From: an uncultured Solirubrobacteraceae bacterium
GTDB lineage: Bacteria > Actinomycetota > Thermoleophilia > Solirubrobacterales > Solirubrobacteraceae
Assembly: GCA_964422115.1 (NCBI GenBank)
Contig: CAYQZU010000010.1
Location: 16,646-80,645 of the forward strand
DNA length: 64,000 nucleotides
Direction: 5' to 3'
Part shown: positions 44,625-62,356 of the stretch, piece after piece
Layout: each line of letters begins with the position of its first letter
Numbering within the stretch: the first letter of the stretch is position 1
The notes under the pieces: model-generated
What the model was told of the DNA's origin: nothing
Seen by the model: the letters and a program-made list of their open reading frames with translations, nothing else
Database searches by the model: none
Position numbers and translations under genes: made by a program

Positions 44625-44765
44625 GTCCACGTCGATCTTCACCTGCTCCCCGGACAGCGCGCGCCGGGCTCTGCGCGTCGCTACACTCGGGGCGGGGAAC
44701 TGACCGTAAAACGGGGCGCACACGGACGTGGCTCCGCGAGCCGCACCGCCCATTTGAACCGGCCA

Positions 44766-47063
44766 ATGATGCGCCAACCCAAACGACTCGCTCTGATGGT
44801 CCTGCTCGTTGCAGGGCTTGGTGCTGCGGTGATCCTCGGGTCTGGCCTTCCGGGGTCGTCGGCCGCCGGATTTCGCCTCGCCGAGCGCCACGGCCCCGCG
44901 ATCTTTCGCGGGCATCCTGCGGCCGGCTCGCGCAGGCCTCGCGTGCTCCTCTTCAGCGCAACCCCGGCGATGCTTCCCGCGGCCGGTGGTACGGTGAAGC
45001 TCTCGGCGCTGGTCGCAGGCGCCAGCGAGTGTCGCTTCGGCGCGGCGGTGCGCGTCGGCACGCTTCCCGCCGCCAGACGCTGCGGGGCCGGCAGCGCGAG
45101 CGTGACGGTGCGTGTCGAACCGAACACCGGCACGGCAGCGGCGACCTACTCATTCACCCTGAAGGTCTACGGTAAGCACGGCAAGCTCGTCGCGCCTCAC
45201 GCGGTGGTTCAGGTTGCGGGCCTCGCCGTGACCCCGAAGCCCGACACCACGACCGCCCCCGGCAGCTCGACGGGTGCCTCGCCGGCTGCGTCTGCGCCGC
45301 CGCACGTCACGAGCAGCCCGACCGACTTCTCGACGCCCTTCGGAACGACGGCGACGTTCAACGCCGCCGCCTCGGGCAACCCCGTACCGGGCGTGCAGTG
45401 GCAGGTCTCGAGCGACGGCGGCTCCGTTTGGAGCGATGTGGCCGGCGCGACCGCGGCGACCTACTCGTTCACGGCCGCTACGGACGGCAACCGCTACCGA
45501 GCGGTCTTCACCAACAGCGCGGGCAACGCGACCAGCACCGCCGCGACGCTGACCGTGACGGGGAGCCCCGTCGCGCCGAGCGTGTCGGCGGACCCGTCCG
45601 ACACGACGGTCACCGCCGGCACCGTCGCCTCGTTCACCGCCGCCGCGACCGGCAGTCCGACCCCGACAGTGCAGTGGCAGGTGTCGACCAACGGCGGCTC
45701 CGTTTGGACCGACGTGGCCGGCGCGACCGCCGACACGCTGTCCTTCAACGCCACCGCGGCGCAGAACGGCCGTGAGTACGAGGCGGTCTTCAGCAACGAC
45801 GCCGGGCCAGGAGGGACGAAGGCGTCCGCCACCACGGCGCCCGCGACGCTGACCGTCAACACGGCGCCACAGGTAACGACCGAACCGCAGGCCGACATCG
45901 TCATCTCCGGCAACAGCGCGTCGTTCACCGCGCACGCCGCCGGATCACCCAGCCCGAGCGTCCAATGGCAGCTCTCCACCGACGGCGGCTCGACCTGGAG
46001 CGCGGTGTCCGGCGCGACTGCCGACACGCTCAGCTTCACAACAAGCGCCGGCCAGACCGGCAATCTCTACCACGCGCTCTTCACGAACGCCGCTGGTTCC
46101 GCGACCTCCGCCGCGGCGACTTTGACAGTCGAGACAGCGCCGCAGGTGAGCTCGCAGCCCGCCAACGCGACCGTCACCGTCGGCGGTACGGCCACGTTTG
46201 CCGCGTCGGCCTCCGGGCTGCCCGCGCCGACGGTGCATTGGGAGTTCTCGAGCAACGGCGGAACCAGCTGGGGAGCGGTGGCCGGTGCCACCTCAGCGAC
46301 CTACTCGTTCCCGACGCTCGAAGCCGAGAACGGCTACGAGTACCGGGCCGTGTTCGCCAACGTGCTCGGGTCGATCACCACGAACGCCGCGACATTGACC
46401 CTCAAGGACCAGACCACCACGAACTGGTCGGGCTATGTGGTCAGCGGGGCGACGTTCACGGCGGTCACCGGCAGCTGGATCGTGCCGAGCGTCAACTGCA
46501 CGTCGCACGCGCACGACTACTACTCGGCGCAGTGGATCGGCATCGACGGCGACTCGAGCCAGACCGTCGAGCAGGACGGCACCGAGGCCGACTGCTTCGG
46601 CACCACCGCGGTCTACGGCGCCTGGTATGAGATGTACGGCGATAACGCGATTGCCGGCGGCAACGAGGTGCCGCTTGGCTACACCGTCCAACCAGGTGAC
46701 GCGATCAGCGCGTCGGTCTCGGTCGCGAGCAACGAATGGACGCTCACGATCGCCGACAGCACGCAGAGCTGGAGCTACTCGACGCCGCAGATCCCCTTCA
46801 CGGCGGCGCAGTCCTCGGCCGAATGGATCGGCGAGCGCCCCTACGTCTGCTACCCGTGCGGACTAGCCTCGCTCGCGAACTTTGGGAGCTTCCGGTTCAC
46901 GGGCGCGAGCGCAACGACGGCCGGCGGCGCGCCGACCCCGACCACTGGCTTCCCGAGCTACACCCCGCTTGACATGGTCGGCTCCGCGAAGCTCGCCGCG
47001 CCGGGCCCGATCGACCCGACAACCGGGGCGGCGTTCACCGATTACTGGTACGGATCGAGCTGA
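44766..47063 (+). CDS. secreted protein: N-terminal Cys-pair module, four Ig-like repeats, C-terminal peptidase G1 (eqolisin/Peptidase_A4) domain
   Basis: Signal MMRQPKRLALMVLLVAGLGAAVILG. Four ~90-aa units (F.A.A.G.P.P.VQWQVS..GGS.W.DV.GAT..T.SF...NG..Y.AVF.N..G..T...ATLTV) at ~45295-46400. The G1 blocks are TTNWSGYV, AQWIGIDG, VEQDGTE, YGAWYEMY and SAEWIGERP. Confidence 0.85.
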   Translation: MMRQPKRLALMVLLVAGLGAAVILGSGLPGSSAAGFRLAERHGPAIFRGHPAAGSRRPRVLLFSATPAMLPAAGGTVKLSALVAGASECRFGAAVRVGTLPAARRCGAGSASVTVRVEPNTGTAAATYSFTLKVYGKHGKLVAPHAVVQVAGLAVTPKPDTTTAPGSSTGASPAASAPPHVTSSPTDFSTPFGTTATFNAAASGNPVPGVQWQVSSDGGSVWSDVAGATAATYSFTAATDGNRYRAVFTNSAGNATSTAATLTVTGSPVAPSVSADPSDTTVTAGTVASFTAAATGSPTPTVQWQVSTNGGSVWTDVAGATADTLSFNATAAQNGREYEAVFSNDAGPGGTKASATTAPATLTVNTAPQVTTEPQADIVISGNSASFTAHAAGSPSPSVQWQLSTDGGSTWSAVSGATADTLSFTTSAGQTGNLYHALFTNAAGSATSAAATLTVETAPQVSSQPANATVTVGGTATFAASASGLPAPTVHWEFSSNGGTSWGAVAGATSATYSFPTLEAENGYEYRAVFANVLGSITTNAATLTLKDQTTTNWSGYVVSGATFTAVTGSWIVPSVNCTSHAHDYYSAQWIGIDGDSSQTVEQDGTEADCFGTTAVYGAWYEMYGDNAIAGGNEVPLGYTVQPGDAISASVSVASNEWTLTIADSTQSWSYSTPQIPFTAAQSSAEWIGERPYVCYPCGLASLANFGSFRFTGASATTAGGAPTPTTGFPSYTPLDMVGSAKLAAPGPIDPTTGAAFTDYWYGSS

Positions 47064-48226
47064 TGAGCCCCCGGCTCGCACGCCCGTCCCTCGCCGCGGC
47101 GCTGCTCGTCTGCGCGCTCGGCTGCCTGGCGCTCGCAGCGGCCTCGAGCTCGCGTGCCGCGCGAACGCGCTCGCCGAGCGTGCCCCAGCCCTCGATCACG
47201 AGCCTGACCGTGTCGCCGGCGATCCTTCCAGCGTCAGGTGGTCTCGTCAAGCTGGTGACGCGCGTCAGCGGCGCGAGGACGTGCCTGTTCACGACAACGA
47301 GCCCCGCGGTCCTCGGGCTTCCGCTGAGCGCCCCATGCCGTGGCGGCCACGCGAGCGCGCGTCCGACGATCGTGTCGGGGCTTGCCGCCTCCGGCACGTT
47401 CTGCGTCACCGCCAACGCGCCCGGCGCTGCGACCGCGAGACGGTGTGTCAGCGCGGCGGTGAGCACCGACGGCGCGACCGGGCAGAGCGGCACGAGCGCG
47501 AGCACATCGGCGAGTGGACCGACGGGGCCGAGCGGTCCGCCCGGCTCCGCGCGAAGCTGGCACCAGATCTTCGACGGCGGGTTCGCTGGAGGCGTCCTCA
47601 ACACGTCGCAGTGGTCCGTCGGCTGGGACGGTCACGGAATCACCGGTCCGGTCGACCCGGTCAAGGAGCTCGAGTGCTACGACCCGTCGCACGTCAGCCT
47701 TTCGGGTGGTGTGCTGGGCCTCCTCGTGACCGCGACGCCCGAGACCTGCAGGAGCGGCTCGTCCTCGTTGCAGGAGGGCTACGCGTCGGGCATGATCAAC
47801 ACGCAGGGCAAGTTCAACTTCACCTACGGCTACGTCGAGGTTCGCGCGTGGCTCCCGGGCACGACGTCGATCGCCGACTGGCCGCAGATCTGGGCGGTCG
47901 GACGCAACTGGCCGGCCGGGGGCGAGCTGGATCTGATCGAGGGACTACGCGACGGCGCGTGCTTCCATTTTCACAACCCCGCGGGCGCGGAGGGTGGTTG
48001 CGCGCCGGGCGATTACGCCGGCGGCTGGCACACATTCGCAGCCGACTGGGAGCCGGGGATCGTCACCTGGTACTACGACGGTGTCGCTGTCGGCAGCGTA
48101 ACCTCCGGAGTCACGAGCTCACCCATGTTCCTGCTGGTGAACCTCGCGGTTGATCACACCTACGGCGGGCCGATCGCGACACCGGCGACGATGAAGGTCT
48201 CCTACGTGCGGATCTGGCAGCACTGA
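47063..48226 (+). CDS. secreted glycoside hydrolase family 16 (beta-glucanase-like) with N-terminal Cys-pair module
   Basis: ATG 47063 overlaps the upstream stop (TGATG). GH16 catalytic block WPAGGELDLIEG (ExDxxE), and GWHTFAADWEPGIVTWYYDG. Confidence 0.85.
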   Translation: MSPRLARPSLAAALLVCALGCLALAAASSSRAARTRSPSVPQPSITSLTVSPAILPASGGLVKLVTRVSGARTCLFTTTSPAVLGLPLSAPCRGGHASARPTIVSGLAASGTFCVTANAPGAATARRCVSAAVSTDGATGQSGTSASTSASGPTGPSGPPGSARSWHQIFDGGFAGGVLNTSQWSVGWDGHGITGPVDPVKELECYDPSHVSLSGGVLGLLVTATPETCRSGSSSLQEGYASGMINTQGKFNFTYGYVEVRAWLPGTTSIADWPQIWAVGRNWPAGGELDLIEGLRDGACFHFHNPAGAEGGCAPGDYAGGWHTFAADWEPGIVTWYYDGVAVGSVTSGVTSSPMFLLVNLAVDHTYGGPIATPATMKVSYVRIWQH

Positions 48227-48250
48227 GCCGCGGTGGTGGCCGTGCGAACG

Positions 48251-48406
48251 ATGATGACCGGCGCCAAAGATCACGAGAACGAGCGCGACGCGGGTGATGA
48301 GCACGCGGACGACCTGGACGAGGTCGGCCGCGAGTCCTTCCCGGCAAGCGATCCGCCGGCATCCTGGTCGGGCCCCGAGGAGGATGCGCAGGCGCCGCTC
48401 GACTGA
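48251..48406 (+). CDS. small acidic protein with ESFPASDPP motif (unlisted 51-codon ORF)
   Basis: MMTGAKDHENERDAGDEHADDLDEVGRESFPASDPPASWSGPEEDAQAPLD*. I recall the SFPASDPP motif recurring in small bacterial hypothetical proteins. Too short for certainty. Confidence 0.4.
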   Translation: MMTGAKDHENERDAGDEHADDLDEVGRESFPASDPPASWSGPEEDAQAPLD

Positions 48407-48427
48407 CGGCGGCGCCCGGCGCCGGTC

Positions 48428-48805
48428 CTACTTGCCTGTGCGAGTGGCGCCGGCGGCCTGCCGGAGCGTCCAGCGCGAAGGATGCCCCGGCGGGAAGTCG
48501 TGGATGCCGACCTCATGCGGCAGATCCCCGTCCATGTTGAACGGGTCCGTGACGTCCACCGCCATTACCGGCAGCGGCCCGTCTCCGTGGCCCGCGACGC
48601 TGCTCGCCTGGTGCCTCGCGAGAACCGACTCGAACACGGCGAACACGATGATCAGCCCGAACAGCACCGCGGTCGCCGGCAGGTATGTGCGCTGTCCCGT
48701 GGCGAGCAGGACACCCGCAAAGATCGCGGCCACCAGCGCCAGGATGAGCAGCATCGGCAGAAGGCTGCCGCTCGTCAGGCCGCGCCGTTTGGCTGGGACA
48801 CTCAC
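48428..48805 (-). CDS. small two-TM membrane protein
   Basis: GTG 48805 (or ATG 48754) gives ...LLPMLLILALVAAIFAGVLLA...AVLFGLIIVFAVFESVL, followed by a soluble tail. Downstream of the DUF202 gene on the same strand. Confidence 0.5.
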   Translation of the reverse strand: MSVPAKRRGLTSGSLLPMLLILALVAAIFAGVLLATGQRTYLPATAVLFGLIIVFAVFESVLARHQASSVAGHGDGPLPVMAVDVTDPFNMDGDLPHEVGIHDFPPGHPSRWTLRQAAGATRTGK

Positions 48806-48982
48806 CTGCGGCACTCTACCCGCCGTAGCGCGCGGAACGCCGGTTACACGCCGTTTCCGGCTGAGCGCTCCGACCAGGCGCACCAGGGCGGGGCCCGGAC
48901 CGCAAAGCTGGATCACCCGCCGGGAACGCAGATGGCCTCGCTTCGAACCGGTTCCGCAGCCGTCAGCTCCGCAGGTCGCTGT

Positions 48983-49390
48983 TCAGCGCAACGCGACCAC
49001 CAACACAGCGAGCGCGATCGCGGCCAGCGCGAATGCCAACACGCCGGCGGTAAGGATGTGCGGCAGCCGCGTGGCGGGAAGCGGCCTGTCCGCACGTATC
49101 GCGTCATCGACGCCACGCCACAAGCGGTGCGAGCACGCCGCGATGAACGCGCCAAAGCAGATCAACAGGAGGCCGACGATTAGCTCAGCGGCGCGTGAGC
49201 CGACGGTGACGAATCGAACGACTGCGACACCACCCGCGATCAGCGCGAGCGCCGTGCGGTTCCAGGAGAGGAAGGTTCGCTCGCTCGCGAGCAGGAAGCG
49301 CGGGTCGGGCTCACTTCGTCGAGCTCCATCCGGCGGCTGCGCGGCGACGATTGCGCCGGGCGTCGCCGGAACTGCGGTCTCGTCGGTCAT
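48983..49390 (-). CDS. DUF202 (YidH-like) membrane protein
   Basis: LASERTFLSWNRTALALIAGGVAVVRF is the DUF202 signature. ATG 49390. Confidence 0.75.
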   Translation of the reverse strand: MTDETAVPATPGAIVAAQPPDGARRSEPDPRFLLASERTFLSWNRTALALIAGGVAVVRFVTVGSRAAELIVGLLLICFGAFIAACSHRLWRGVDDAIRADRPLPATRLPHILTAGVLAFALAAIALAVLVVALR

Positions 49391-49471
49391 CCGCAGGGGC
49401 TCCTCGCGGGGGCGCATGGGACGGTACGGACACGAACGGAGCGGCATATCGCTCCGCGGACATCTTAGTCG

Positions 49472-49497
49472 CGCGACCGCCCGCGACCGCTCGCGAC
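49472..49497 (+). promoter_or_regulatory. three helically phased direct repeats (CGCGAC every 10 nt) upstream of the cluster's first gene
   Basis: CGCGACCGCC-CGCGACCGCT-CGCGAC at 49472, 49482 and 49492, lying 50-75 nt upstream of GTG 49547. Confidence 0.3.
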
Positions 49498-49546
49498 GAG
49501 GTCGGTTTGTCGCCGCCGATACGATCCAGCCGGGCGGGCGGACCAG

Positions 49547-50752
49547 GTGGTGGACATCAAAGCATCTTCAACCGCGCCGATCGGCGCCATCGTTCTCGGC
49601 ATGGGTCGAAGCGGTACGAGCGCCGTGACGCAAATGCTCGTTTCCGCTGGGTTCTTTGCAGGGCTGTCGAGCGAGCTCATGGTTCCGCTCGAGTCAAACC
49701 CGTTGGGGCATTTCGAGCACCTCGGCATCGTCGCCGTCAACGAGGAGATCCTCGGCGAACTCGGTGGAAGCTGGCAGCAGCCTCCGCCGCGCGCCGCCCA
49801 GCTCTCAGCGCGGGAGCACGCCACGCATCGCGTGCGAGCGCAGCTGCAGGCGCTCGTCGAGCGCTCGGACGGAGCGCCAATAGCGGTCAAGGATCCGCGA
49901 GTGGGCATGTTGTTGCCGATCTGGGGCCCGCTGATCGACGAGCTCTTCATGACCGTGCTCACGGTGCGCCATCCGCTCGAGATCGCGCAGTCGCTCGCAC
50001 AACGTGATGGGACACCGCTCGCACTTGGGTTGGCGATGTGGGAGCTTCACACAACCGGGCTGCTCAGCTTTCTGAACGGGCGCACGGCCATCGTCGCGCC
50101 GTACGAGCAACTGATCGCGACGCCCGAGATCGCCGTGCTGATCGTGAATTCCGTGGTCGATGGACTCGACGATGAGCAGGCCGGCTTGGTGGCGGCGGCG
50201 GCTGCTCCGGCGGCGCTCGCCACCGAGCTGCGCCATCACCGTGCGAGCGCCAGGGATGCAGAGGAGATGCTCACCGGACGCCAGCTCAACATCTGGAAAC
50301 TGCTTGAGCAGTTGCCGGCCGGGGCGCAGCGCATCGAAGCGAACGAGCAGCTGTGGAGCCCAACGGCCGTGAGCCTTGACGCAGTCAATGCTGAACGTCA
50401 TCGACTTCGCGTGGCCGGCTCCGCGCGCGATGCCGAGCGGCTACCCGGCGAGCTGGCTGAGCAGCGTCAACAGGCACAACTACTCGTAGGTGAGCGCGAC
50501 GATCTCACGCGTCAGCTCGACCTGGCGCGAGCTGACGCCGACGCCGCCGCGGCCGGACACGCGGTTGCGGTTCACTGGCTGAACGAGATCAAAGGATCGG
50601 CGAGCTGGCGACTCACGAGCCCGCTGCGGAGGGTGATGCGATGGCTACGCCGTGCCGGACGTGGCGTTCGGGGTGCGCCACAGGCCGTCGCAGGGCCAGC
50701 GCCGCAGAACGCTGAGGCGGCAGACACGCACCATGGCGGCGCGATACTGTGA
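49547..50752 (+). CDS. sulfotransferase-like domain fused to C-terminal coiled-coil region
   Basis: IVLGMGRSGTSAV is a PAPS 5'-PSB-like loop. VKDPRVGMLLPIW, VRHPLEIAQSL. The C-terminus is heptad-like (LAEQRQQAQLLVGERDDLTRQLDLARADAD) and ends in SASWRLTSPLRR. Paralog of 59466..60680. Confidence 0.7.
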   Translation: MVDIKASSTAPIGAIVLGMGRSGTSAVTQMLVSAGFFAGLSSELMVPLESNPLGHFEHLGIVAVNEEILGELGGSWQQPPPRAAQLSAREHATHRVRAQLQALVERSDGAPIAVKDPRVGMLLPIWGPLIDELFMTVLTVRHPLEIAQSLAQRDGTPLALGLAMWELHTTGLLSFLNGRTAIVAPYEQLIATPEIAVLIVNSVVDGLDDEQAGLVAAAAAPAALATELRHHRASARDAEEMLTGRQLNIWKLLEQLPAGAQRIEANEQLWSPTAVSLDAVNAERHRLRVAGSARDAERLPGELAEQRQQAQLLVGERDDLTRQLDLARADADAAAAGHAVAVHWLNEIKGSASWRLTSPLRRVMRWLRRAGRGVRGAPQAVAGPAPQNAEAADTHHGGAIL

Positions 50753-50843
50753 GCCGGATTCCTGCACGGAGGGACAGCGCCATGTCGAGACGGTTTGCAG
50801 CGCCTGATTGCGCCAAGGACCGTAAGCGGACGACCCCCGCGGG

Positions 50844-53800
50844 ATGACGGCCGGCCGGCGTGCCGGCGCCCCGCGGCTGATCGACTGGACGGGCGAGCGC
50901 TGCGTGCCCTGGGGTCCCGACGTACCTGTTCTGTACGAGCACATGCACCGCTACCTGTGGGCGGCACAGTTGGTTGGGGGACTGCGCGTCCTCGACGTCG
51001 GCTGCGGCGAGGGGTTCGGGGCCGCGATCCTCGGCCAGCGCGCCGCATCGGTGGTTGGCGTCGACATCGACGAACGGACTGTCGAGCATGCCCGCCTGAA
51101 CTACGCCAGCCCGACGATCTCGTTCCGCTGCGACAGCGCGACTGACCTTTCTGCTCTCGACGCCCAGTCTTTCGGTGCAGTGGTGGCGTTCGAGGTTATC
51201 GAGCACCTCGACGAGCAGGAGCTGATGCTCGCCGAGATCGCGCGGGTGCTCGACAAGGACGGACTGCTGATCCTGTCGACGCCCGATCGCCTTCTCTACT
51301 CGGACGGCGCCAGTCCGCGCAACCCATTTCATCGGCGCGAGCTCTCCCAGGGCGAGCTCGCGGAGCTCCTAAAAGCCCGCTTCGCGCAACTCGCACTCTT
51401 TGGCCAGCGAACGATCACCGGCTCCCACCTCGCGAGACTCGACGAATCACAGCACGGCGCGGAAGGCGCCACGAGTTCGTTCTTCATCGAGCGCAGCGGC
51501 GACGAGTGGCGGCAGGCCGCTGACCCAGCTCCGCTCTACATGATGGCGGTCGCCTCGAACTCGCCACTGCCAACGCTTCCGCGTGACTCGACGTTGGCTG
51601 ACTGCGGGTTGGAGCTGATGCGCGTGCCAGAGCGCGAGGTCGCTCGTTTGACCGTCGAGCGCCAACACGACGCCGTTCGCTTCGAGCGGGAGCGCGAAAA
51701 GCAGGCGGTCGAACTTCTGGCTGCCGGTGCTGAGGAAGCGAACCGCGCGGCGCAGGAGCACGAGCGCGAGATCGCCGAGTTGGCCGCGGGCGCGCGCCTA
51801 CAAACCGAGAGCGCAACCGCGGAGCTCGAGCGCCTGGGGAGACTCGTCCTCGACCTGGGGGTTCATGGCGCCAACCGCGACGCGACCGTCGCGATGCTGC
51901 AGGACCAGCTCGAGGCGGTCAGTGAGCGCGAAGCCCACGCCCAGCTGCTGCTACGCAAGGCCGAGGACTCGGTGACCTGGCGGCTGTTCCTTTTGTCCCG
52001 ATCGAAGCTGTTCGGGGCCATCGGAGAAGACTCGCCGTCGGCGCGCACGCTCCGTTGGTCGTTGCGAGTGCTTGGGCGCCACCTGACGAGCGAGCAGCCA
52101 CCACTCGCGCCGGCGATCGCGCCGCAGACGGCCCCCCCGACGCGCGCGACCATCATCTTTCCGACGTTCGAGCAGCCGCTCGTGTCGATCATCGTCGCGT
52201 TGCACACTCGGGCCGATCTCACCCGCGCCTGCCTGATGAGCATCCGCGACCATACCCCGCCGACGAGCTACGAGCTGATACTGGTCGACGATCTGGCCGA
52301 TGCCGCGACCAAGGAGCTGCTCGGATCGGTCGAGGGCGCGCGCATCGTCACCACCGAGCACCAGCTCGGCTACCTGCGGAGCATCAATTGTGCCGCCGAG
52401 AGCGCCACCGGGCGCTGGCTCGTGGTTTGTAACAACGACATCGAGGTGCATCCAGGGTGGCTCGCCGCGCTACTGGAATGTGCCGAGTCGGCCGACGACA
52501 TCGGAGTAGTTACGCCGCGCTACATCTATCCGGACGGTCGGCTGAACGAAGCCGGCGCTCTCCTCTGGACCGATGGAACCGGCGTGAACTATGGACGCGG
52601 CGAGGACCCTCAGGACTTCCACTACCGTTACCGGCGCGAAGTCGACTACGGCTCGGGCGCCGCTCTGCTCGTGCGCGGCGAATTCTGGCGCGATGTCGGT
52701 GGCTTTGATGAGCTTTTCTTGCCCATGTACTACGAGGACGCCGATCTCTGCTTCGCCGCGCGGGAGCACGGCTGGCGAGTGGTGTACGAACCGGCCGCGC
52801 TGGTCACTCACCTCGAGGGGGCCACTGCGGGGACGGACCTCTCGTCGGGTCTCAAGCGCCATCAGGAGGACAACCGCCCCAAGTTCGTCGAGAAGTGGCG
52901 GCGGCAACTCGAGCGCGACCACATGCGTCCGGCGAACACGCACGTTCGCCGCGCCTCCGACCGTCGCGGCGGACCGCGCGTGCTGATCGTCGACCACCGA
53001 GTGCCGGCTTGGGACCGCGACGCCGGATCGCTGCGCCTCCTGCGGATGATCGAGGCTCTTCAAGGTCTGGGGGCACGCGTCACTCTGCTGCCTGACAACT
53101 TCCATCCGCTGGAGCCCTACACCACCGCGCTGGAACGGTCAGGGGTGGAGGTGTTTCACGGGCCCGTGGATATCCGCGGTGAGCTCGCTGAAGCGGGGCC
53201 GTCGCTCGCGCTGGCGATTCTCTGCCGGCCGACGATCGCGAGCCGCTGGCTGGATTTGGTCCGTGAGTATGCGCCGGCGGCGCGCGCGGTTTACGACACG
53301 GTGGACTTGCACTGGTTGCGCGAAACGCGCCGCCGGCTCCCTGAGTACGTCGATGATGGCGCGCGGCGGATTCCACCGCAGGCGACGGTGCTGCGCGAGC
53401 TCGAGCACGCGCTGATCCGCTCGGTGGATGTTACGTTCGCGGTCAGCGACGTTGAACGGCGCCAGATCGAGGCCGACCTGCCAGGTGCCGAAGTTCGCGT
53501 CGTACCCACGGTCCACGAGCTCGAGCGCGACGTTCCTGCTCCGGAGGGTCGGTCCGGTGTGCTGTTCATCGGCGGTTTTGAGCATCACCCGAACGTAGGC
53601 GCTGCGCTTCGCCTGATACGCGACATCATGCCGCTTGTGTGGCGGGAGTTCGGCGATGTCCCCGTGACGATCGTCGGCGCCGACGCGCCGCCGGAGATCT
53701 GCGCATTGGCGTCGGCGCGCGTCGACGTCGCCGGCTGGGTCGAGGATCTCGGACCGCTGCTGCGTCGCTCGCGCGTGATGGTGGCGCCGATCGTCTATGG

Positions 53801-54137
53801 CGCCGGTCTGAAAGGCAAGGTCACCCAGTCGCTGGCCGCTGGCCTGCCGGTCGTGACGACCCCAGTCGGTGCCGAGGGCCTCGGAGTAGAGGATGGCGAC
53901 CGGCTGCTGGTCGGCGCGACCGATGACGATCTGGCTGCGCGAACAATCGCCGTGCTACGCGACAACGAGTTGTGGACGAGCCTGTCGCGCGGTGGCCAAC
54001 AGCTCGTCGCCGAGCACTGCAGCCCGGCGCATATGCGCGACTCCCTCGCTGAGTTGCTCGACCCCCAAAGCCCATTTCCGGAGCCGCTTGCAGCGCGGGT
54101 CTTCGAGCCCGCAGAGACGATGCAATACCCGACGTGA
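50844..54137 (+). CDS. multidomain glycan synthase: class I SAM methyltransferase, coiled coil, GT2 glycosyltransferase, GT4 (GT-B) glycosyltransferase
   Basis: VLDVGCGEGFGAAIL is MT motif I. An E/R/A/L/Q-rich region spans aa ~250-390. GT2 domain: VSIIVALHT...ELILVDD...YYEDAD. GT-B domain: GGFEHHPNVGA...APIVYGAGLKGKVTQSLAAGLPVVTTPVGAEG. Confidence 0.9.
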   Translation: MTAGRRAGAPRLIDWTGERCVPWGPDVPVLYEHMHRYLWAAQLVGGLRVLDVGCGEGFGAAILGQRAASVVGVDIDERTVEHARLNYASPTISFRCDSATDLSALDAQSFGAVVAFEVIEHLDEQELMLAEIARVLDKDGLLILSTPDRLLYSDGASPRNPFHRRELSQGELAELLKARFAQLALFGQRTITGSHLARLDESQHGAEGATSSFFIERSGDEWRQAADPAPLYMMAVASNSPLPTLPRDSTLADCGLELMRVPEREVARLTVERQHDAVRFEREREKQAVELLAAGAEEANRAAQEHEREIAELAAGARLQTESATAELERLGRLVLDLGVHGANRDATVAMLQDQLEAVSEREAHAQLLLRKAEDSVTWRLFLLSRSKLFGAIGEDSPSARTLRWSLRVLGRHLTSEQPPLAPAIAPQTAPPTRATIIFPTFEQPLVSIIVALHTRADLTRACLMSIRDHTPPTSYELILVDDLADAATKELLGSVEGARIVTTEHQLGYLRSINCAAESATGRWLVVCNNDIEVHPGWLAALLECAESADDIGVVTPRYIYPDGRLNEAGALLWTDGTGVNYGRGEDPQDFHYRYRREVDYGSGAALLVRGEFWRDVGGFDELFLPMYYEDADLCFAAREHGWRVVYEPAALVTHLEGATAGTDLSSGLKRHQEDNRPKFVEKWRRQLERDHMRPANTHVRRASDRRGGPRVLIVDHRVPAWDRDAGSLRLLRMIEALQGLGARVTLLPDNFHPLEPYTTALERSGVEVFHGPVDIRGELAEAGPSLALAILCRPTIASRWLDLVREYAPAARAVYDTVDLHWLRETRRRLPEYVDDGARRIPPQATVLRELEHALIRSVDVTFAVSDVERRQIEADLPGAEVRVVPTVHELERDVPAPEGRSGVLFIGGFEHHPNVGAALRLIRDIMPLVWREFGDVPVTIVGADAPPEICALASARVDVAGWVEDLGPLLRRSRVMVAPIVYGAGLKGKVTQSLAAGLPVVTTPVGAEGLGVEDGDRLLVGATDDDLAARTIAVLRDNELWTSLSRGGQQLVAEHCSPAHMRDSLAELLDPQSPFPEPLAARVFEPAETMQYPT

Positions 54138-54883
54138 CCGGCCTGTACGTCGCGCCACAGACTGGGAAGCTGCGCGACGAATGCGTGTTCTACCACGTGA
54201 TGGAGATTCCAGGTCACGGTCTGTTGGGTGAATCCTGGGACCTCCGTGCAGGTGTCGACGACTACCTCGGACACGTTCCGCTGGCGAACCAGCGCGTACT
54301 CGAGATCGGGCCGGCGAGCGGATTCGTCACCTTTCATATGGAGCGGCAGGGAGCCGAAGTGGTTTCGGTCGAGCTCGGTCCCGACAGCGATTGGGACGTC
54401 GTGCCGCACGCGCGTTTGGATGTCGCCCGCATCCTTGAGGTCCGCCGCGCCGGGATGCAGATGATTCGCAACAGCTTCTGGTTCGCTCACGAGCGACTTG
54501 GCAGTCGCGCCCGCGTGCACCACGGCACAGCCTATGAGTTACCGGATGAGCTCGGCCGCTTCGATCTCGCGATCCTCGGATCTGTGCTGCTGCACATGCG
54601 GGATCCGCTACGCGCGCTCGAGCGGTGCGCGAGGCTGAGCGACGCACTCGTCATCACCGAGACCTACTCCCACGAGCTCGGTGAAGGCCCGGTCGCCCGA
54701 CTCTACCCAACCGTCGACTCATCCCAGTGGGACACCTGGTGGAGCTTCACGCCCCAGCTGCTGAAGCAGTTCCTCGAGGTGCTTGGGTTTCGTCGCGTAA
54801 CAGTTACTCATCACAGCCAGACGTTCGTGAACGCCGGCGCTGCGATGCAGATACCCATGGTCACGCTGGTCGCCAGGCGTTAG
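54134..54883 (+). CDS. class I SAM-dependent methyltransferase
   Basis: GTG 54134 overlaps the upstream stop (GTGA). RVLEIGPASGFVTFHMERQGAEVVSVE is motif I plus the acidic loop. Also FDLAILGSVLLHMRDP. Confidence 0.8.
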   Translation: MTGLYVAPQTGKLRDECVFYHVMEIPGHGLLGESWDLRAGVDDYLGHVPLANQRVLEIGPASGFVTFHMERQGAEVVSVELGPDSDWDVVPHARLDVARILEVRRAGMQMIRNSFWFAHERLGSRARVHHGTAYELPDELGRFDLAILGSVLLHMRDPLRALERCARLSDALVITETYSHELGEGPVARLYPTVDSSQWDTWWSFTPQLLKQFLEVLGFRRVTVTHHSQTFVNAGAAMQIPMVTLVARR

Positions 54884-54892
54884 TCCTAGCGC

Positions 54893-55636
54893 GTGACGTG
54901 GACCTGCATCCTTTGCGGCATCGCGCAAGGCGAGCCGCGCGGCCCGCTCGAGCGCGGCGCGGTCCCTTGTCAAGACTGCGGCGCCGTTTGGCTACATCGG
55001 GCGATCGGGCTGGTGATCCTCCAGGGGCTCCGCCTGCCGATCACGCCTTTCTCCTCGCTCGCCCCCGACCTTTCCAGACGTGGCCTCGGGATCAGCGATT
55101 CATTCCCTCTCGCGGCCGTTCTGGGCGGCCGGTTTGACTACGTCAACAGTTGGTATCACCGCTTCCCAAGAGTCGATCTCACCTGCGTTCCGGAGGAGCT
55201 GCGCGAGCAGTTCGAGTTCGCCGTCTGCTCGGAGGTGCTCGAGCACGTCCCGCCACCGGTCGAACACGCGGTGCGCGGGATCGCCGACCTGCTTCGACCG
55301 GGAGGATTCGTCGCCCTCTCAGTACCGGCCGCGGGCGCCACCACGACGGAGTTCTACCCCGGTCTCGCGCGCTACGAGCCGGGAGACGGCAGCGTTCGAT
55401 GGGCCGATGGCGCGGGCAACTGGCAGATCGACGACAACCCCGAGTTTCACGCCGGCATCGGGCAGACGCTCGCGTTTCGCCGTTTCGGCGACGGCGACCT
55501 GGCCGCGCAGCTCATCGAGGCTGGATTCGCAGCACCCGAGCCCGTCACCTGGAACGATGATCTCGGCGTTCAGCCGGTCGCGTTTCCGAGTGTCTACCTC
55601 GTGCGTAAGCGGACCGTTGCGCGATCACCAACCTAG
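54893..55636 (+). CDS. methyltransferase-like protein with N-terminal zinc ribbon
   Basis: CILCG...CQDCG ribbon. FEFAVCSEVLEHVPPPVEHAVRGIADLLRPGGFVALSVP matches the post-I/II/III motifs of class I MTs. Motif I is degenerate (GLGISD). Confidence 0.6.
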   Translation: MTWTCILCGIAQGEPRGPLERGAVPCQDCGAVWLHRAIGLVILQGLRLPITPFSSLAPDLSRRGLGISDSFPLAAVLGGRFDYVNSWYHRFPRVDLTCVPEELREQFEFAVCSEVLEHVPPPVEHAVRGIADLLRPGGFVALSVPAAGATTTEFYPGLARYEPGDGSVRWADGAGNWQIDDNPEFHAGIGQTLAFRRFGDGDLAAQLIEAGFAAPEPVTWNDDLGVQPVAFPSVYLVRKRTVARSPT

Positions 55637-56592
55637 GGCGAGAACTCGAGAATCCCGATTCGCTCCTCGTGCTCGAGGATCGCACGCTGGGCGAGGCCGG
55701 CGTTCTCCGCGTACCAGCTCAGATGCGCCGTCAAGAGTTGGGCGACAGGTGTGCGGCAACCGCCGATCGTCCAATCCTCGCGCGGTACCGCACGTAGCTC
55801 GAGCGCCGCGATCACACTCCGCTCCAGCGGGGTGCGAATCTCCCCGAGCAGGTCCTCGCCCGGCAACAGCGGCTGATAGGCAAGATTCAGCTGCAAGTGG
55901 ATCTGCGATACGAGCTGCGCCAGCGCGACGTTGGTTGGATGGTTGATCGTCAGAAAGGATCGTCCGTGCAGCGCCGGTCCCAGGAGCCGCTCGGCGACCC
56001 GGATGTCAACCTCCTGGTCGATCGCGAGCAGCGCCGCGCGGGCACGCGACGCGAGCGCCCGGATCCCGGCGACCGAGGGCGCTAGGTCGCGCAGCCAGGC
56101 GAGCGACCTGTCGAGGCTCCAGCCGGCGGCGGCACAGTAGATGAAGCGTAGGTCGTGGTAGATCGAGTAGGGCGCCGGCAGGGCCTGGCCGCGCTGGTCG
56201 CGCACGTGAACCTGAAACGGATACAAGCCGTCGTAGCGGAGCGCCGGGATCGTCACCAGCCGGCAGTCCGCTGGCGCTGCCTGGACGACCTCGTGGGAGC
56301 CCACCGCGAGACCGTGGTAGCCGTCGCGGACCCTTTGGGAGATCACGAGCGAGGCGCGCGAGACGATCCGTCGGATCCTCGGCACATCGTCGGCGGTTGC
56401 CTCGTGCACGGCGGGTAGCGCCAAGGTGCGGAACGCGGAGCAGAATGTCGGCGAGCGCTCCAGGAGAACGCGAAGGGACTCCGCTTGGCAGTTGCCGTGA
56501 AGCACGCACAGCGGCAGCTGTGTCCGCTGCGATCGCGCCGCCGCATGGCCGAGGGTGGCACCGCTCGCGTCGATCATCACAGCCAGGAGCAT
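55633..56592 (-). CDS. WcbI-like polysaccharide biosynthesis protein (putative acyl/modifying enzyme)
   Basis: ATG 56592 gives MLLAVMIDASG...CVLHGNCQAESLRVLL. As I recall it, the N-terminal GNCQ motif and ~320-aa size fit the WcbI family. The rest of listed ORF 55633..56967 is an implausible extension. Its stop overlaps the convergent stop of 54893..55636 (CTAG). Confidence 0.55.
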   Translation of the reverse strand: MLLAVMIDASGATLGHAAARSQRTQLPLCVLHGNCQAESLRVLLERSPTFCSAFRTLALPAVHEATADDVPRIRRIVSRASLVISQRVRDGYHGLAVGSHEVVQAAPADCRLVTIPALRYDGLYPFQVHVRDQRGQALPAPYSIYHDLRFIYCAAAGWSLDRSLAWLRDLAPSVAGIRALASRARAALLAIDQEVDIRVAERLLGPALHGRSFLTINHPTNVALAQLVSQIHLQLNLAYQPLLPGEDLLGEIRTPLERSVIAALELRAVPREDWTIGGCRTPVAQLLTAHLSWYAENAGLAQRAILEHEERIGILEFSP

Positions 56593-56787
56593 GCACGAAC
56601 AGCGCCAACGATGATCGCCGCAACCGCCTCGTCGATGCCCGATGGTAAGTCGACGACCTCCAACGATTCGGCCCCTGGCCGGCGGATGATCGCCGCGGCG
56701 TCGCTCGTGTGCCACCGCGACCCCCGCCGGGGTGGGTAGGATGTCCACCGCAGCTCGCGCGCCATCTGATCCCGAGGCATCGACCCG

Positions 56788-57657
56788 ATGAAACTGGTGA
56801 TGACGCTGGTCGTCCGCGACGAAGCGGACATTCTGCGCGAGAACATCGAGTTCCACCTCGCGCTCGGCGTCGACGAGTTCCTCGTGATGGACAATCTCTC
56901 GGTCGACTGGACGCCCGACATCGTTCGCGAGTACGAGCGGGCCGGCGTGGCGCGCCTCTGCCATCAACCGGTCGATGACTACTCACAGGGCCGCTGGGTT
57001 ACGGGGCTGGCTGCTCGGGCAGTCAACGAGCTTCGGGCCGACTGGGTGATAAACAGCGATGCCGATGAGTTCTGGTGGACACCCGGCGGATCGCTCAAGG
57101 ACGCGTTGGCACAGGCGGACCCTCAGATCGTCGCGGTATCGGCCGAGCGAACCAACTTCGTTCCACGGCCCGAATCCGATGCACCGTTCTGGCGGCGCAT
57201 GAACGTGCGCCACTCGGTTTCCTTCAACCTCCTCGGCCAGCCGATTCCGCCGAAGGTTGCGCATCGCGGACGCGGCGACATCACGGTTGCAGACGGTAAT
57301 CACAGTGTGCGCGTGGCGGGCGCTTCGACACTCGCTGCGCCGTCCTCGGTCACGATCCTCCACTTCCCGCTGCGCACCCGCGAGCAGTTCAGAAACAAGA
57401 TTGTCCTCGGGGGCGCGGCGCTCGCGCGTAACACCGAGGTTGATGGCGGAGTCGGAAGCACCTGGCGGCAGATGTACGATCGCCATCTGCTGGGCGAACT
57501 TGACGCGGTCTACGACGCCGAATGCCGCTCCGAGGCGGAGCTCGCTCGCGGATTGGCCTGTGGTGAGCTGGTGCGCGACACGCGGCTGATCGAGACGCTC
57601 GAGCGCACACGGCTTGGCGGGCAGCCCAATGGCGAGGCGCGAAGTCGCGTTCAGTGA
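56788..57657 (+). CDS. glycosyltransferase family 2-like (Glyco_tranf_2_4 type)
   Basis: LVVRDEADILRENIEFHLALGVDEFLVMDNLSVD...WVINSDADEFWW is typical of this GT-A subgroup. Confidence 0.75.
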   Translation: MKLVMTLVVRDEADILRENIEFHLALGVDEFLVMDNLSVDWTPDIVREYERAGVARLCHQPVDDYSQGRWVTGLAARAVNELRADWVINSDADEFWWTPGGSLKDALAQADPQIVAVSAERTNFVPRPESDAPFWRRMNVRHSVSFNLLGQPIPPKVAHRGRGDITVADGNHSVRVAGASTLAAPSSVTILHFPLRTREQFRNKIVLGGAALARNTEVDGGVGSTWRQMYDRHLLGELDAVYDAECRSEAELARGLACGELVRDTRLIETLERTRLGGQPNGEARSRVQ

Positions 57658-58493
57658 GCGCCCTCGCCGACCCCGACCGTGCGTCCGAATCGCGCGCCGT
57701 CGTGACGGCGTGCGACGCGAACTACTTCCAGGGTCTCCTTGCACTGCACGCCTCGGTACAGGCCTCCGCTCCGTGCCCGGTGCTCTGCTACGACCTCGGT
57801 CTTACTGCGCCCCAGCGGGCGCAAGCGGAGCGGCGGCCGAACCTGTCGGTGGCGGACCTGCCGGCGGACCCGCTGATCGAGGAGCTGATCGACGCCACGC
57901 GCGAGGACGCGCCGCTGGCCAAGTCCGACAAGCGCCTGTGGCCGCTGTGGATCTGCCCGCTGCTGATCCGCGCGGCACCGCTGCGCGACGTGGTGTGGCT
58001 CGACTGCGACCTACTTGTGCTGCGAGGGCTCGATGAGCTGTTCGCGCTGCTCGACACCGGACCCGTCTTCACGCCGGAGCTTCATGCGCCGGAGCTGACC
58101 CCGAACCACCCGGAGCTCTACCGCCTTATGCCGATTCGGCGCGAGTTCGACCAGTTGCTCCCGGTCGTCAACGCCGGTGTGTCCGGATGGCGGCATGGCC
58201 GCGACGACGCCGCGCTGGCCGCCTACATCCTGCCCGTGGCGACCGCCGCGCGTGACCGCGCGGTACGGGATGCGATCGCATGGTGGGACCAGGGGGCGCT
58301 GATCTGGGCGATTCAGTCGCTCGGGCTCGAGCATCGCGTGCTGTCATCACCGGCCTGGAACCTGCCGGTTGCACAGGCCGACCTCGCGCCGGAAGCGTTG
58401 ACCTGGAACGACGGTCTGCTCGCCCGGCTTCAGGCGGCTCTACCCGCGGTCAGGATCGTCCACTGGAACGGGCGGCCGGCGCCATGGACTTGA
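57654..58493 (+). CDS. GT8-like nucleotide-diphospho-sugar transferase
   Basis: GTG 57654 overlaps the upstream stop (GTGA). AVVTACDANYFQGLLALHASV and VVWLDCDLLVLRGLDELF (DxD) resemble GT8/GT-A. Confidence 0.65.
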   Translation: MSALADPDRASESRAVVTACDANYFQGLLALHASVQASAPCPVLCYDLGLTAPQRAQAERRPNLSVADLPADPLIEELIDATREDAPLAKSDKRLWPLWICPLLIRAAPLRDVVWLDCDLLVLRGLDELFALLDTGPVFTPELHAPELTPNHPELYRLMPIRREFDQLLPVVNAGVSGWRHGRDDAALAAYILPVATAARDRAVRDAIAWWDQGALIWAIQSLGLEHRVLSSPAWNLPVAQADLAPEALTWNDGLLARLQAALPAVRIVHWNGRPAPWT

Positions 58494-59469
58494 GCGCGGC
58501 GGCGACGAGCAACAGCCGCCGCCATTCGATTACCAGATGCAGGCGGAAGGCGAGCGCGTAGGCCGCAACGACGAGCAGGAAGCGGAGGTCGTCGCGAGCA
58601 GCGTCGAGAGCGAGCGCCAGCGGACCCCATGCCTTGTAGAAGCTGTCCTCGATGAGGGGCAGGTATCGCTGGCCACCGCGCCGGAACGCGGTGACCTGGA
58701 AGCCCCCGTGCACGGTCTTGAACGTCTCGTAGACGAGGTAGAGGCCCGCGACTCCCCAGAGCACTGGCCCGGTGCGGGCGAGCGCCAGAGCTGCCCCGAA
58801 CGAGACCGCTTCGATCGGCAGGATGATTCCGATCATCACGGCTTCGAGCCGGAAGGTGCCGTGCCGGTGCGCCACCGTGCTCAGTCCGGCACGCTGATCC
58901 GCTTCGGCGCCCTGGACCTGGTGGGAGAGGATCCCCCGCAGCCCGGCGGCAGCCGCCCACACGATCACGCAGGCCGACAAACCCAAGCTGACAGGCCGGC
59001 GGTACCACTCAGCCCACGCAACCAGCGCGAGCACGGCCGGGTAAGCGTGCGCCGCAAGCCCATCGACCGCTGCCCCAAGCCACTCGCGCTCCTTCAGACG
59101 GATCGGAGGCACCGAATAGATCAGCGGCAGTCCGAGCTCGACCCCGGTGACGGCCGTCCCGGCGGCACCGGCGGCCAGCGTGGCGAGCAGCACCGCGACC
59201 AGCGCCGAGCCGGCGGCGATCACCGCCACACGCCGTCGACCGACAGCGGCCGCGGCGTTGTCGCGCCCCAGCAGCGCGTCCTCGCGCAGGTCGTACAACT
59301 CGTTGATCGCATAGCCGTAATTGGCGACCGCGCAGACGGTCGCCGAAACCGACAGGGCCATAGCGAGGGCGTCACCCGAGAATCGATGTCCGTCAAGCAA
59401 GACCAGCAGGAGCGTGATCGTGAACGGGACCTTGCTGAACCACCACGCGCGTGGTCTGACGAGGATCAC
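58450..59469 (-). CDS. UbiA-family integral-membrane prenyltransferase
   Basis: First Asp-rich motif NELYDLREDALLGRDN. About 8-9 TM helices. GTG 59469 overlaps the stop of the upstream gene (GTGA). Confidence 0.8.
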   Translation of the reverse strand: MILVRPRAWWFSKVPFTITLLLVLLDGHRFSGDALAMALSVSATVCAVANYGYAINELYDLREDALLGRDNAAAAVGRRRVAVIAAGSALVAVLLATLAAGAAGTAVTGVELGLPLIYSVPPIRLKEREWLGAAVDGLAAHAYPAVLALVAWAEWYRRPVSLGLSACVIVWAAAAGLRGILSHQVQGAEADQRAGLSTVAHRHGTFRLEAVMIGIILPIEAVSFGAALALARTGPVLWGVAGLYLVYETFKTVHGGFQVTAFRRGGQRYLPLIEDSFYKAWGPLALALDAARDDLRFLLVVAAYALAFRLHLVIEWRRLLLVAAALKSMAPAARSSGRS

Positions 59470-60680
59470 GCGTCGCTTCGCACCGTCGAAGCTCCCAGCT
59501 GTTGGCGGAGCTCGCGGATCTGGGACTCCAGACGCGCCTGCTCGCTGCGGACGACGGCGCGCAGACGCATGATCTCGCCCTCGTCCCGGGCGCGTTGCTC
59601 GTTCACGGCCACACTTGCGGCTTCCACCTCCGCCTGCAGCCGCAGCTGTTCGCTGCTTACAAGCGCCCGCAGGCGTTCGATCTCGCGTTCGTGCCCGAGC
59701 AGTAGCTTTTCTTGCACCGCAGCCCGCTCGATGATCTCCCGGCGCACCCGCTCAGCGTCCGTCAGCGCCCACGCGGCGACGCGGTCGACGAGCAGTTCCT
59801 CGGGCACGGTTAGTGCCTGGGTCTGCGGTTGCAACGTCTCGAGCCAACCCCAGAGCGCCCGCTGGCGGAAGCTGAGCGATTCCTCGTCGGCGAAAGCACT
59901 GGGCGCAGCCGCGTCGGACCGCACCTCGGGGGCGAAGACGGCGGCTGCCGCAGCTGGCTCGACCTGCCGGCGTCGATCGGGCTCGAGCGTCGCGGCCGCA
60001 TCACGGACCAGCTGCTCGGCAGCCCCCGGCGTGCCGAGTGCGGCGTACGGCGCAACGGTCACCTGGGCACCCTGAAGACGGCGCAGTAGCTCCACCAGAT
60101 GAAGCTCCCACGCGGCGAGCGCAAAGGGCACCGGCGACCCGTCGCGCGCCGCCAGCGAGGCGGCGACCTCGAGCGGGTGGCGCACCACCAGGACGGGCGC
60201 GAATCGCTCGGCCAGGATCGGCAGCCAGAGGTCGAGCAGCATGCCGATCCGCGGGTCTTTGAGAACCACGGGCAGCGGACCCGCCTCGGTGACTAGCTCG
60301 TCGAGAACGACCTGCGCGCGACCTCGATCGACGCCGCCGGGCTCGTATCGCGATCCGGCTCGCGGCGGCTGAAACCAGGTCGCGCCGGCCGCGCAGAGAA
60401 TCTGATCGTTGAGCTCAACGATCTCACGGCGCTCGAAATAGCCCCGCGGATTGGCCCAATTTGGCGCCAGCAGCCCCGACGGCGGACCGGAATGGAAGCC
60501 TGCCGCAACGAACATGCTTGCGACCGCACTCGTACCGCTACGGCTCATTCCGAGGATCACGACGCCGGCCGCGCGGTGACCGACGACCGGCGGGAATCTC
60601 GAGGCACCGACCTGGGATGCGGCCACTCCCAGCCCAACGGAGTGGCCGCCGTCGCGGTCCGACCCGGGAATCCACGCCAT
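59466..60680 (-). CDS. sulfotransferase-like domain fused to C-terminal coiled-coil region (paralog of 49547..50752)
   Basis: VILGMSRSGTSAV, LKDPRIGMLLDLW, VRHPLEVAASLAARDG. The C-terminal ~110 aa are heptad-like (EREIERLRALVSSEQLRLQAEVEAASVAVNEQRARDEGEIMRLRAVVRSEQARLESQIRELRQQL). Confidence 0.7.
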   Translation of the reverse strand: MAWIPGSDRDGGHSVGLGVAASQVGASRFPPVVGHRAAGVVILGMSRSGTSAVASMFVAAGFHSGPPSGLLAPNWANPRGYFERREIVELNDQILCAAGATWFQPPRAGSRYEPGGVDRGRAQVVLDELVTEAGPLPVVLKDPRIGMLLDLWLPILAERFAPVLVVRHPLEVAASLAARDGSPVPFALAAWELHLVELLRRLQGAQVTVAPYAALGTPGAAEQLVRDAAATLEPDRRRQVEPAAAAAVFAPEVRSDAAAPSAFADEESLSFRQRALWGWLETLQPQTQALTVPEELLVDRVAAWALTDAERVRREIIERAAVQEKLLLGHEREIERLRALVSSEQLRLQAEVEAASVAVNEQRARDEGEIMRLRAVVRSEQARLESQIRELRQQLGASTVRSDA

Positions 60681-62152: not shown

Positions 62153-62225
<73 letters not shown>

Positions 62226-62356
62226 TTGTTGCCTGCGGAGGCGCGCTTGACGCGAAACAACGCGTGTGCGCGATGCAGGGCCTGCGGATGTTAGCGGCGA
62301 TGGATCCTCGCGGGCCAGTACCGAATCGGCGATTTCAGCGAGGCGCTCGGGCGCTG

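Follow-up and report, generated by a model that had tools for sequence, protein, structure and literature searches.

Introduction

In all characterized systems that make terminated O-polysaccharides, a coiled-coil ruler bears the terminator at its far end, and the carbohydrate-binding module (CBM) of Wzt binds the terminal cap and lets only those chains be exported that carry it (PMC11231755). The parts can be divided between two proteins, as in WbdD/WbdA, or combined in one, as in O12 WbbB, which is a single-chain terminator-ruler-polymerase, and in Klebsiella pneumoniae O7 ORF6, which reads methyltransferase (MT)-(kinase-CBM)-coiled coil-GT2-GT2, where GT denotes a glycosyltransferase family (PMC11231755). 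In Geobacillus stearothermophilus NRS 2004/3a, WsaE joins an MT to two rhamnosyltransferase domains, and the MT caps the chain of the S-layer glycan (PMC2943079). Here, we analyze P0001, a protein encoded in a stretch of 64,000 nucleotides from an uncultured Solirubrobacteraceae bacterium (contig CAYQZU010000010.1, positions 16,646 to 80,645; hereafter the window), in which an MT, a long central helix, a GT2 module and a GT4 module follow one another on one chain. We favor, at a probability of roughly 0.65, the reading that P0001 is a single-chain polymerase-terminator of a cell-surface glycan whose export depends on a transporter of the ATP-binding cassette (ABC) type. An earlier note on this DNA, made from the letters alone, had proposed a fused terminator-ruler-polymerase; the domain order, the conserved motifs, the steps in helix length and the linkage to Wzt_C described below support that proposal, but not its presentation of the one-chain layout as new.

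Domain architecture of P0001

The open reading frame (ORF) of P0001 is free of stops over 1097 codons (translation checked), and its stop codon overlaps the GTG start of a downstream MT gene in the sequence GTGA. It is not a chance frame of GC-rich DNA, since 967 database homologs were recovered, the best 120 of which are all full-length (1051-1156 residues) with an identical domain set. Pfam and an AlphaFold2 model, for which 48 homologs served as input (mean predicted local distance difference test (pLDDT) 76.5), bear out the four-part make-up read by the earlier note, namely a class I S-adenosylmethionine (SAM) MT, a helix, a GT2 and a GT4. The Pfam matches (E-values in brackets) are Methyltransf_11 at residues 50-144 (4e-21), Glycos_transf_2 at 448-574 (2.5e-17) together with Glyco_tranf_2_3 at 447-661, and Glyco_trans_1_4 at 905-1040 (1e-19), and an NCBIfam scan returned no family more specific than these. 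The MT, GT-A and GT-B domains are all modeled confidently. Neither Pfam nor NCBIfam found a kinase domain in P0001, and its GT2 and GT4 are fused, so that it does not have the layout of the WbdD terminator.

When counted over 119 homologs, the catalytic and binding motifs of the three enzymatic modules are retained in 100-119. The MT displays motif I, VLDVGCGEGFG (residues 49-59; 113/119 homologs), and VVAFEVIEHL (113-122), both of which lie where the earlier note had put them, as well as a conserved N-terminal block YEHxHRYLW (31-39). Its sequence matches in the PDB are generic small-molecule/sugar O-methyltransferases (3l8d, 6e-9), against 5e-4 for WbdD, and the label "capping-type" that it had been given is therefore not readable from its sequence; a specific homology of the MT to WbdD was considered and rejected, as generic MTs match better. 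The GT2 module features ILVDD (479-483), NND (530-532) and YYEDAD (629-634), which are retained as VDD, NND and YYEDxD in 100-119 of the 119 homologs, and both Foldseek and PDB sequence searches match it to the GT-A domains of the ppGalNAc-T enzymes. The GT4 module features FEHHPN (912-917), GLKGK (988-992) and GAEG (1009-1012), retained as FxHxPN, GxKGK and GAEG in 113-119, and its top Foldseek matches are the GT4 enzymes ManT (7qsg), BshA and PimB' (TM-score 0.67-0.73 on the target). Both GT modules thus keep the motifs whose loss the earlier note had allowed for, and the MT and GT parts, which it had feared might never be found together, are joined in most homologs.

The central helix ends at SVTWRLF (residues 376-382, nucleotides 51969-51989), again at the place that the earlier note had given, and is followed by a junction with two short helices in the AlphaFold2 model (377-393 and 398-414), of which the second is cationic and amphipathic (hydrophobic moment 0.62, net charge +4). 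W379 is invariant, S376, V377 and T378 are at least 90% conserved, and S.TW is found in 117/119 homologs, with ESVTWQxF as the family consensus of the junction. The conservation of residues 371-414 (0.70) is on par with that of the catalytic domains. A Pro/Ala-rich linker modeled at low confidence then leads into the GT2 module (Table 1).

A central helix that varies in length by phase-preserving steps

Residues 261-375 form an unbroken helix of 115 residues in the AlphaFold2 model, at a pLDDT of 52-69. The center of P0001 is accordingly helical, and not globular or disordered as the earlier note had considered it might turn out to be; the helical nature of the spacer therefore stood, but its length is ~115-125 residues and not the claimed 140. 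Across homologs the helix spans 60-174 residues. The stretch from C254 to W379, both of which are invariant, is alone in varying strongly in length (86-174 residues, standard deviation 12.8 among 48 aligned homologs), as all other segments of P0001 have standard deviations of at most 6.5 residues in the same alignment. The helix is also poorly conserved, with a majority-residue frequency of 0.45 vs 0.70-0.77 in the domains.

These lengths are quantised. Among 84 database homologs, 51 have helix lengths equal to 1 modulo 7 (92, 99, 106, 113, 120) and 22 have lengths equal to 5 modulo 7 (103, 110, 117, 124); the corresponding counts are 42/55 and 8/55 for homologs drawn from species-level genomes. 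To allow for shared ancestry, changes in helix length were inferred by parsimony on a tree built from the non-helix columns. Exact multiples of 7 account for 18 of the 42 inferred steps (binomial p = 7e-6), and a further 11 equal 4 modulo 7 (+4, +11, -3, -10). Steps of 7 and of 4/11 correspond to the heptad, stutter and hendecad steps that would hold the seam of a coiled coil in phase, as is expected for a coiled-coil spacer. The survey of coil length across homologs that the earlier note had called for thus yields a helix that is strongly variable in length and changes by phase-preserving steps.

A local register scan places residues ~301-384 of P0001 in a constant a/d register, with hydrophobic residues or Ala at 75-88% of the a/d positions vs 30-35% elsewhere, and the dominant spectral periods of the homologous helices are the heptad harmonics 7, 3.5 and 2.3. 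In composition, the helix has 20 E, 14 R and 22 A among its 115 residues, with EREREK-type runs, and 23% of it is L, V, I, M or F, a share of large hydrophobics that argues for a coiled coil over a monomeric single alpha-helix. Taken together, the continuous helix of the model, the indel steps and the a/d register favor a coiled coil in P0001, which would span ~17 nm if straight.

Distribution of the family and its linkage to Wzm/Wzt

A scan that covered each species by a single genome gave 192 relatives, and the best 80 among them were examined as loci. Full-length relatives of ~45-59% identity are present in at least 80 species genomes, and the best 80 of the 192 are nearly all labeled as Solirubrobacterales or its families, with a few metagenome-assembled genomes labeled just Actinomycetota or Actinomycetes; the cultured Conexibacter arvalis DSM 23288 is among them, with a homolog at L058 that is 48% identical. 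The spread is patchy: of the 201 genomes sampled from the order, 11 have a match at E <= 1e-50, and of the five from the same genus none has one. The P0001 gene is accessory, not universal. Open frames of 1500-1900 residues at three loci (L058, L059, L042) were rejected as longer variants, as their upstream extension is without a Pfam domain and is probably an open GC-rich frame. Apparent split genes at five others (L069, L073, L077, L080, L085) were left out of the count of natural splits, since their pieces fall in neighboring frames and may stem from sequencing frameshifts.

In 47/80 homolog loci, an ortholog of Wzt, the ATPase of the ABC transporter, is encoded at most 10 kb away; its C-terminal domain is Wzt_C-like, as judged by a match to the Wzt_C portion of the Wzt that the present genome encodes. 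At L092 and L093, where Pfam confirms the Wzt_C domain, Wzt is the divergent neighbor of the P0001 homolog, and the gene order is DUF2142/GT-C, GT2, a ~700-residue GT2+GT4 protein, a ~400-residue MT, Wzm, Wzt(Wzt_C) and the divergent P0001 homolog, with RmlC and CtaA further downstream at L093. In the genome analyzed here, Wzt (Wzt_C 7e-18), Wzm and RmlC (57535-58050) are found on contig C11 at 53.9-58.1 kb. The C11 locus around them (44000-59100, L005) comprises DUF2142/GT-C, GT2+GT4 proteins of 658 and 685 residues, a Trm112-MT, an 802-residue GT4 protein, Wzt(Wzt_C), Wzm, RmlC and CtaA, and is syntenic with loci that hold P0001 homologs in other species. P0001 itself lies apart from it in an accessory cluster, and export through the C11 transporter would have to take place in trans, which we take as an assumption.

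A proposed terminator-ruler-polymerase mechanism

By analogy with the characterized systems, we infer a capping activity, an oligomeric state and a ruler function for P0001, along with its donor sugars (possibly L-rhamnose) and its final acceptor. We posit that the GT2 module, of an inverting CAZy family, and the GT4 module, of a retaining one, would take turns in extending, on the cytoplasmic side of the membrane, a glycan linked to polyprenol, thereby polymerizing a repeat with two linkages. The junction, with its cationic amphipathic helix, could tether the GT modules to the membrane or to the assembly's base, while the 115-residue helix would oligomerize and keep the N-terminal SAM MT ~17 nm away from the GT sites. 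Only sufficiently long chains would then reach the MT, receive an O-methyl cap and cease to grow, and the capped end would be recognized by the Wzt_C CBM of the Wzm/Wzt exporter, encoded on C11 in this genome.

Several observations weigh against this reading. The AlphaFold2 confidence in the helix is just 52-69, which is usual for an oligomeric coil modeled as a monomer. By Fourier analysis, the heptad periodicity of the whole segment is weak (p = 0.076 for P0001; p < 0.05 in 12/70 homologs), and the coiled-coil call consequently rests on the AlphaFold2 helix, the local a/d register and the sizes of the indel steps. The MT matches WbdD more poorly than it does the generic 3l8d, and two more MTs are encoded directly 3' of P0001, so that methylation need not be terminal. 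Three homologs (L074, L082, L084) are without the MT and match P0001 from residue ~300-343 onward, with a short coil, the ESVTW junction, GT2 and GT4; no gene for an MT-coil partner was seen near them, and stand-alone MTs elsewhere in their genomes were rejected as partners, being without a coil and far from the GT gene. On the side of export, neither Wzm nor Wzt was found in the window or elsewhere on its contig (C10), and the Wzt of the closest P0001 homolog (L002) is without a CBM. C11 has GT2+GT4 proteins of its own, and its 802-residue GT4 protein fills the slot that a P0001 homolog usually occupies, for which reason the partnership of P0001 with the C11 exporter is an assumed one. Finally, methylation by WsaE in vitro is independent of chain length (PMC2943079).

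We weighed three other explanations. P0001 might be a polymerase with a built-in modifying MT that O-methylates every repeat internally, with the helix acting as an oligomerization scaffold and chain length being set otherwise. This would fit a generic Methyltransf_11 enzyme without specific likeness to known terminators, and heavy decoration is suggested by the two extra MTs and the two sulfotransferase-like genes that the cluster holds; in addition, the GT4 module is matched best in fold by the mannosyltransferase that acts in the methylmannose polysaccharide pathway of mycobacteria. Nevertheless, we hold it to be unlikely: a simple scaffold needs no poorly conserved helix of 60-174 residues with phase-preserving length steps, an internal modifier would be expected beside the GT active sites and not ~17 nm off, and the linkage to Wzt_C (47/80 loci) points to a terminal epitope, because this module binds the cap in characterized systems (PMC11231755).

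Another possibility concerns the helix itself, which could be a monomeric ER/K-type single alpha-helix or a part of a fold-back hairpin, in which case it could still be a spacer but would be without the oligomeric ruler geometry of the WbdD/WbbB type. Typical single alpha-helix domains are less hydrophobic than the P0001 segment, and its 23% of L/V/I/M/F, the constant a/d register at ~301-384 and the heptad-harmonic periods in homologs render this very unlikely, even though the segment is E/R/A-rich with EREREK-type runs, gives a weak heptad Fourier signal and is modeled by AlphaFold2 as an isolated helix at moderate confidence, and even though indels of 7 or 11 residues would equally keep the rotational setting of one rigid helix. 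We find it scarcely probable that the GT modules are not a polymerase and instead add one residue each, as an adaptor or side-branch on a glycan made by others (e.g., the C11 GT2+GT4 proteins), with the MT modifying the adaptor. WbbB, O7 ORF6 and WsaE all use paired GT modules as a polymerase (PMC11231755, PMC2943079), and a long spacer between MT and GT would have no obvious role in single additions. To the credit of an adaptor, typical homolog loci also encode a separate ~700-residue GT2+GT4 protein and a ~400-residue MT, such as this genome has on C11, and the P0001 gene is accessory (11/201 genomes of the order, 0/5 of the genus).

A sulfotransferase-like neighbor and its C-terminal tail motif

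Immediately upstream of P0001 is P0002, which the earlier note had described as sulfotransferase-like; this is upheld by a weak match to the P-loop of Sulfotransfer_3 and by its model, whose best PDB matches are the sulfotransferase domains of CurM and OLS (E ~6e-4). The model comprises the sulfotransferase-like domain, a 77-residue helix and a tail helix (pLDDT 88.9). The element SASWRLTSPLRR that the note had quoted is present in P0002 at nucleotides 50597-50632, and its generalized form, S-x-S-W-R-x-T-x-P-L-R-x-x-K/R, is retained in 29 of 64 P0002 homologs. A small MT-coil protein of this genome (C11:29168-30055; L004:5169-6056) also has this tail at its end, and the tail is found on proteins in 8/80 related loci (L009, L023, L025, L027, L034, L039, L043, L052).

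A tail profile of 41 positions (A3), searched against a library of 1.84 billion entries, finds 2431 protein clusters, with P0002 as a clear member (61.6 bits). The top 150 matches include 148 new proteins, 145 of which carry the motif. In 117 of these 145 carriers, the last copy lies at most 30 residues from the C-terminus, and 25 have several copies (sometimes 2-3). The tail closes the coiled coils of glycan-assembly proteins of many kinds, and its carriers include GT2, GT4, RgpF, TagF-like, MT, HAD and sulfotransferase-like proteins. In a WbdD-like carrier of the MT-kinase-coil type, the coil ends with the motif and an amphipathic C-terminal region comes right after it. No Pfam model corresponds to the motif, a profile search found no PDB chain with it, and a literature string search gave no match.

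The earlier note had suggested that this tail and the SVTW junction of P0001 are a shared junction or docking element. They do have a common position at the end of a coil, but the case for homology is weak: the P0001 family scores at most 2 bits against the tail profile, without significance, and a profile-profile comparison of the junction with the tail aligns them in register at E 5.4e-4 with a probability of 30%. We regard it as decidedly doubtful that the tail is a general docking/capping element at the membrane-proximal coil end of glycan-assembly proteins. If it were, P0002 would join the P0001 assembly through its tail, and the locus would have a choice of two terminators, a methyl one in cis and a sulfate one in trans, with a ruler for each; the natural range of helix lengths in heptad steps (60-174 residues) would then adjust chain length from one species to the next. 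The motif may also mark ruler bases and could help in finding terminators in genomes.

The surrounding gene cluster

Downstream of the two MT genes lies a gene for a WcbI-family protein. WcbI-like genes are found near 26/80 homolog loci (median match start ~13.3 kb, just past the end of the homolog), and one is directly downstream of the P0001 homolog in L092, which suggests a functional link, possibly O-acylation of the glycan of P0001. Next in the window are GT2_4/GT92-like, GT8-like and UbiA-family genes, followed by a second sulfotransferase-coil paralog. The UbiA-family gene might be part of a polyprenyl-phosphate pentofuranose side-branch system of the kind reported in PMC11127046.

The cluster (49547-62226) has a GC content at third codon positions (GC3) of 0.75-0.85 vs 0.87-0.93 in its flanks; this offset is inside the spread of the genome and is weak evidence for a foreign origin. 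Given the GC3 values and the lack of a P0001 match in five genomes of the same genus, the cluster may be an accessory island, although no integrase was seen at it. A listed ORF of 444 residues (48294-49628, forward strand) was rejected as an Arg/Ser/Pro-rich off-frame artefact, with the real genes on the minus strand (Table 1).

As a separate observation, C11 has a further polysaccharide region upstream of L005 (24000-43600, L004) that encodes a UDP-glucose/GDP-mannose dehydrogenase, MTs, a DegT aminotransferase, a Wzx-like Polysacc_synt protein and several GT2 proteins. Orthologs of its DegT and Wzx-like genes adjoin the closest P0001 homolog (L002).

Table 1. Features of P0001 and of the genes around it, in window coordinates
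Feature	Coordinates	Strand	Basis or remark
P0001, whole gene: MT + candidate coiled coil + GT2 + GT4	50844..54137	+	ORF, Pfam, homologs
Class I SAM methyltransferase domain, residues ~28-250	50925..51593	+	Pfam, high pLDDT, invariant columns
Single continuous alpha-helix, residues 261-375, candidate coiled-coil spacer/ruler	51624..51968	+	AlphaFold2 DSSP
Conserved junction, residues 376-414	51969..52085	+	SVTW motif at helix break, then two short helices
Pro/Ala-rich low-confidence linker, residues 415-440	52086..52163	+	pLDDT <50 at 414-433; conservation 0.37
GT2 (GT-A fold) module, residues 445-693	52176..52922	+	Pfam, AlphaFold2, motifs, Foldseek
GT4 (GT-B fold) module, residues 712-1075	52977..54068	+	Pfam, Foldseek, motifs
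P0002: sulfotransferase-like domain, 77-residue helix, C-terminal tail S-A-S-W-R-L-T-S-P-L-R-R (50597-50632), basic end	49547..50752	+	
Downstream methyltransferase (Methyltransf_23/11), translationally coupled to P0001	54134..54883	+	GTGA overlap
Second downstream methyltransferase	54893..55636	+	
WcbI-family protein	55633..56592	-	Also near homolog loci
UbiA-family prenyltransferase, translationally coupled to the sulfotransferase-coil paralog	58450-59469	-	
Second sulfotransferase-like coiled-coil paralog, 41% identical to P0002, without the tail motif	59466..60680	-	
tRNA-Thr(GGU), cluster end	62152-62226	-	
DUF202 gene	48983-49447	-	
Small membrane-protein gene	48428-48916	-	

Comparison with known systems

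The arrangement of all parts on one chain, which the earlier note had put forward as a novelty, has precedents: WbbB consists of one chain, and the order MT-(coil)-GT-GT is that of K. pneumoniae O7 ORF6 and of WsaE (PMC11231755, PMC2943079). The core architecture and mechanism are thus already published, and P0001 confirms known biology and opens no new category. Judged by its described architecture, O7 ORF6 resembles P0001 in being one chain with an N-terminal MT, two C-terminal GT modules and, at its center, a coiled coil (a candidate one in P0001). It differs in being longer than 1400 residues, in that a kinase and a CBM-like domain separate its MT from the coil, in installing a methyl-phosphate and in having two GT2 modules, whereas P0001 has no kinase and pairs a GT2 with a GT4. 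WbbB of K. pneumoniae O12 and Raoultella terrigena combines, as P0001 would, a terminator, a coiled-coil ruler and a two-module polymerase in one protein, and the Wzt linked to it carries a cap-reading CBM (as summarized in PMC11231755); unlike in P0001, its terminator is a GT99 beta-Kdo transferase (Kdo, 3-deoxy-D-manno-oct-2-ulosonic acid) and its setting is the Gram-negative lipopolysaccharide pathway. In WbdD/WbdA of Escherichia coli O9a and K. pneumoniae O3, a coiled coil parts an MT-type terminator from the polymerase, as is proposed for P0001, and the coil has a membrane-proximal region at its base, but WbdD has an MT and a kinase without a GT, and its polymerase, WbdA, is a protein of its own that WbdD recruits. 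By domain order, P0001 is also like WsaE, a soluble trifunctional Gram-positive enzyme of a Wzm/Wzt pathway with an N-terminal 2-O-methyltransferase and two rhamnosyltransferase domains; the latter use dTDP-L-rhamnose, and the P0001 genome holds RmlC at C11:57535-58050.

P0001 shares with the terminator-polymerases of the WbbB and O7 ORF6 type a terminator-type module distal to the GTs, here an N-terminal SAM MT of intact motif I, and two GT modules with conserved motifs. The linkage to Wzm/Wzt with a CBM holds for its family (47/80 loci); the pair of this genome is on C11 and not on C10, and the Wzt of the closest homolog is without a CBM. The surface glycans of Solirubrobacterales and Conexibacter are essentially uncharacterized, and P0001 would extend to these soil Actinomycetota the coiled-coil terminator-polymerase design of the enterobacterial O-antigens. 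With dozens of orthologs that differ chiefly in the length of the helix, by steps of 7 and 4/11, the family would also offer a natural experiment on the ruler idea.

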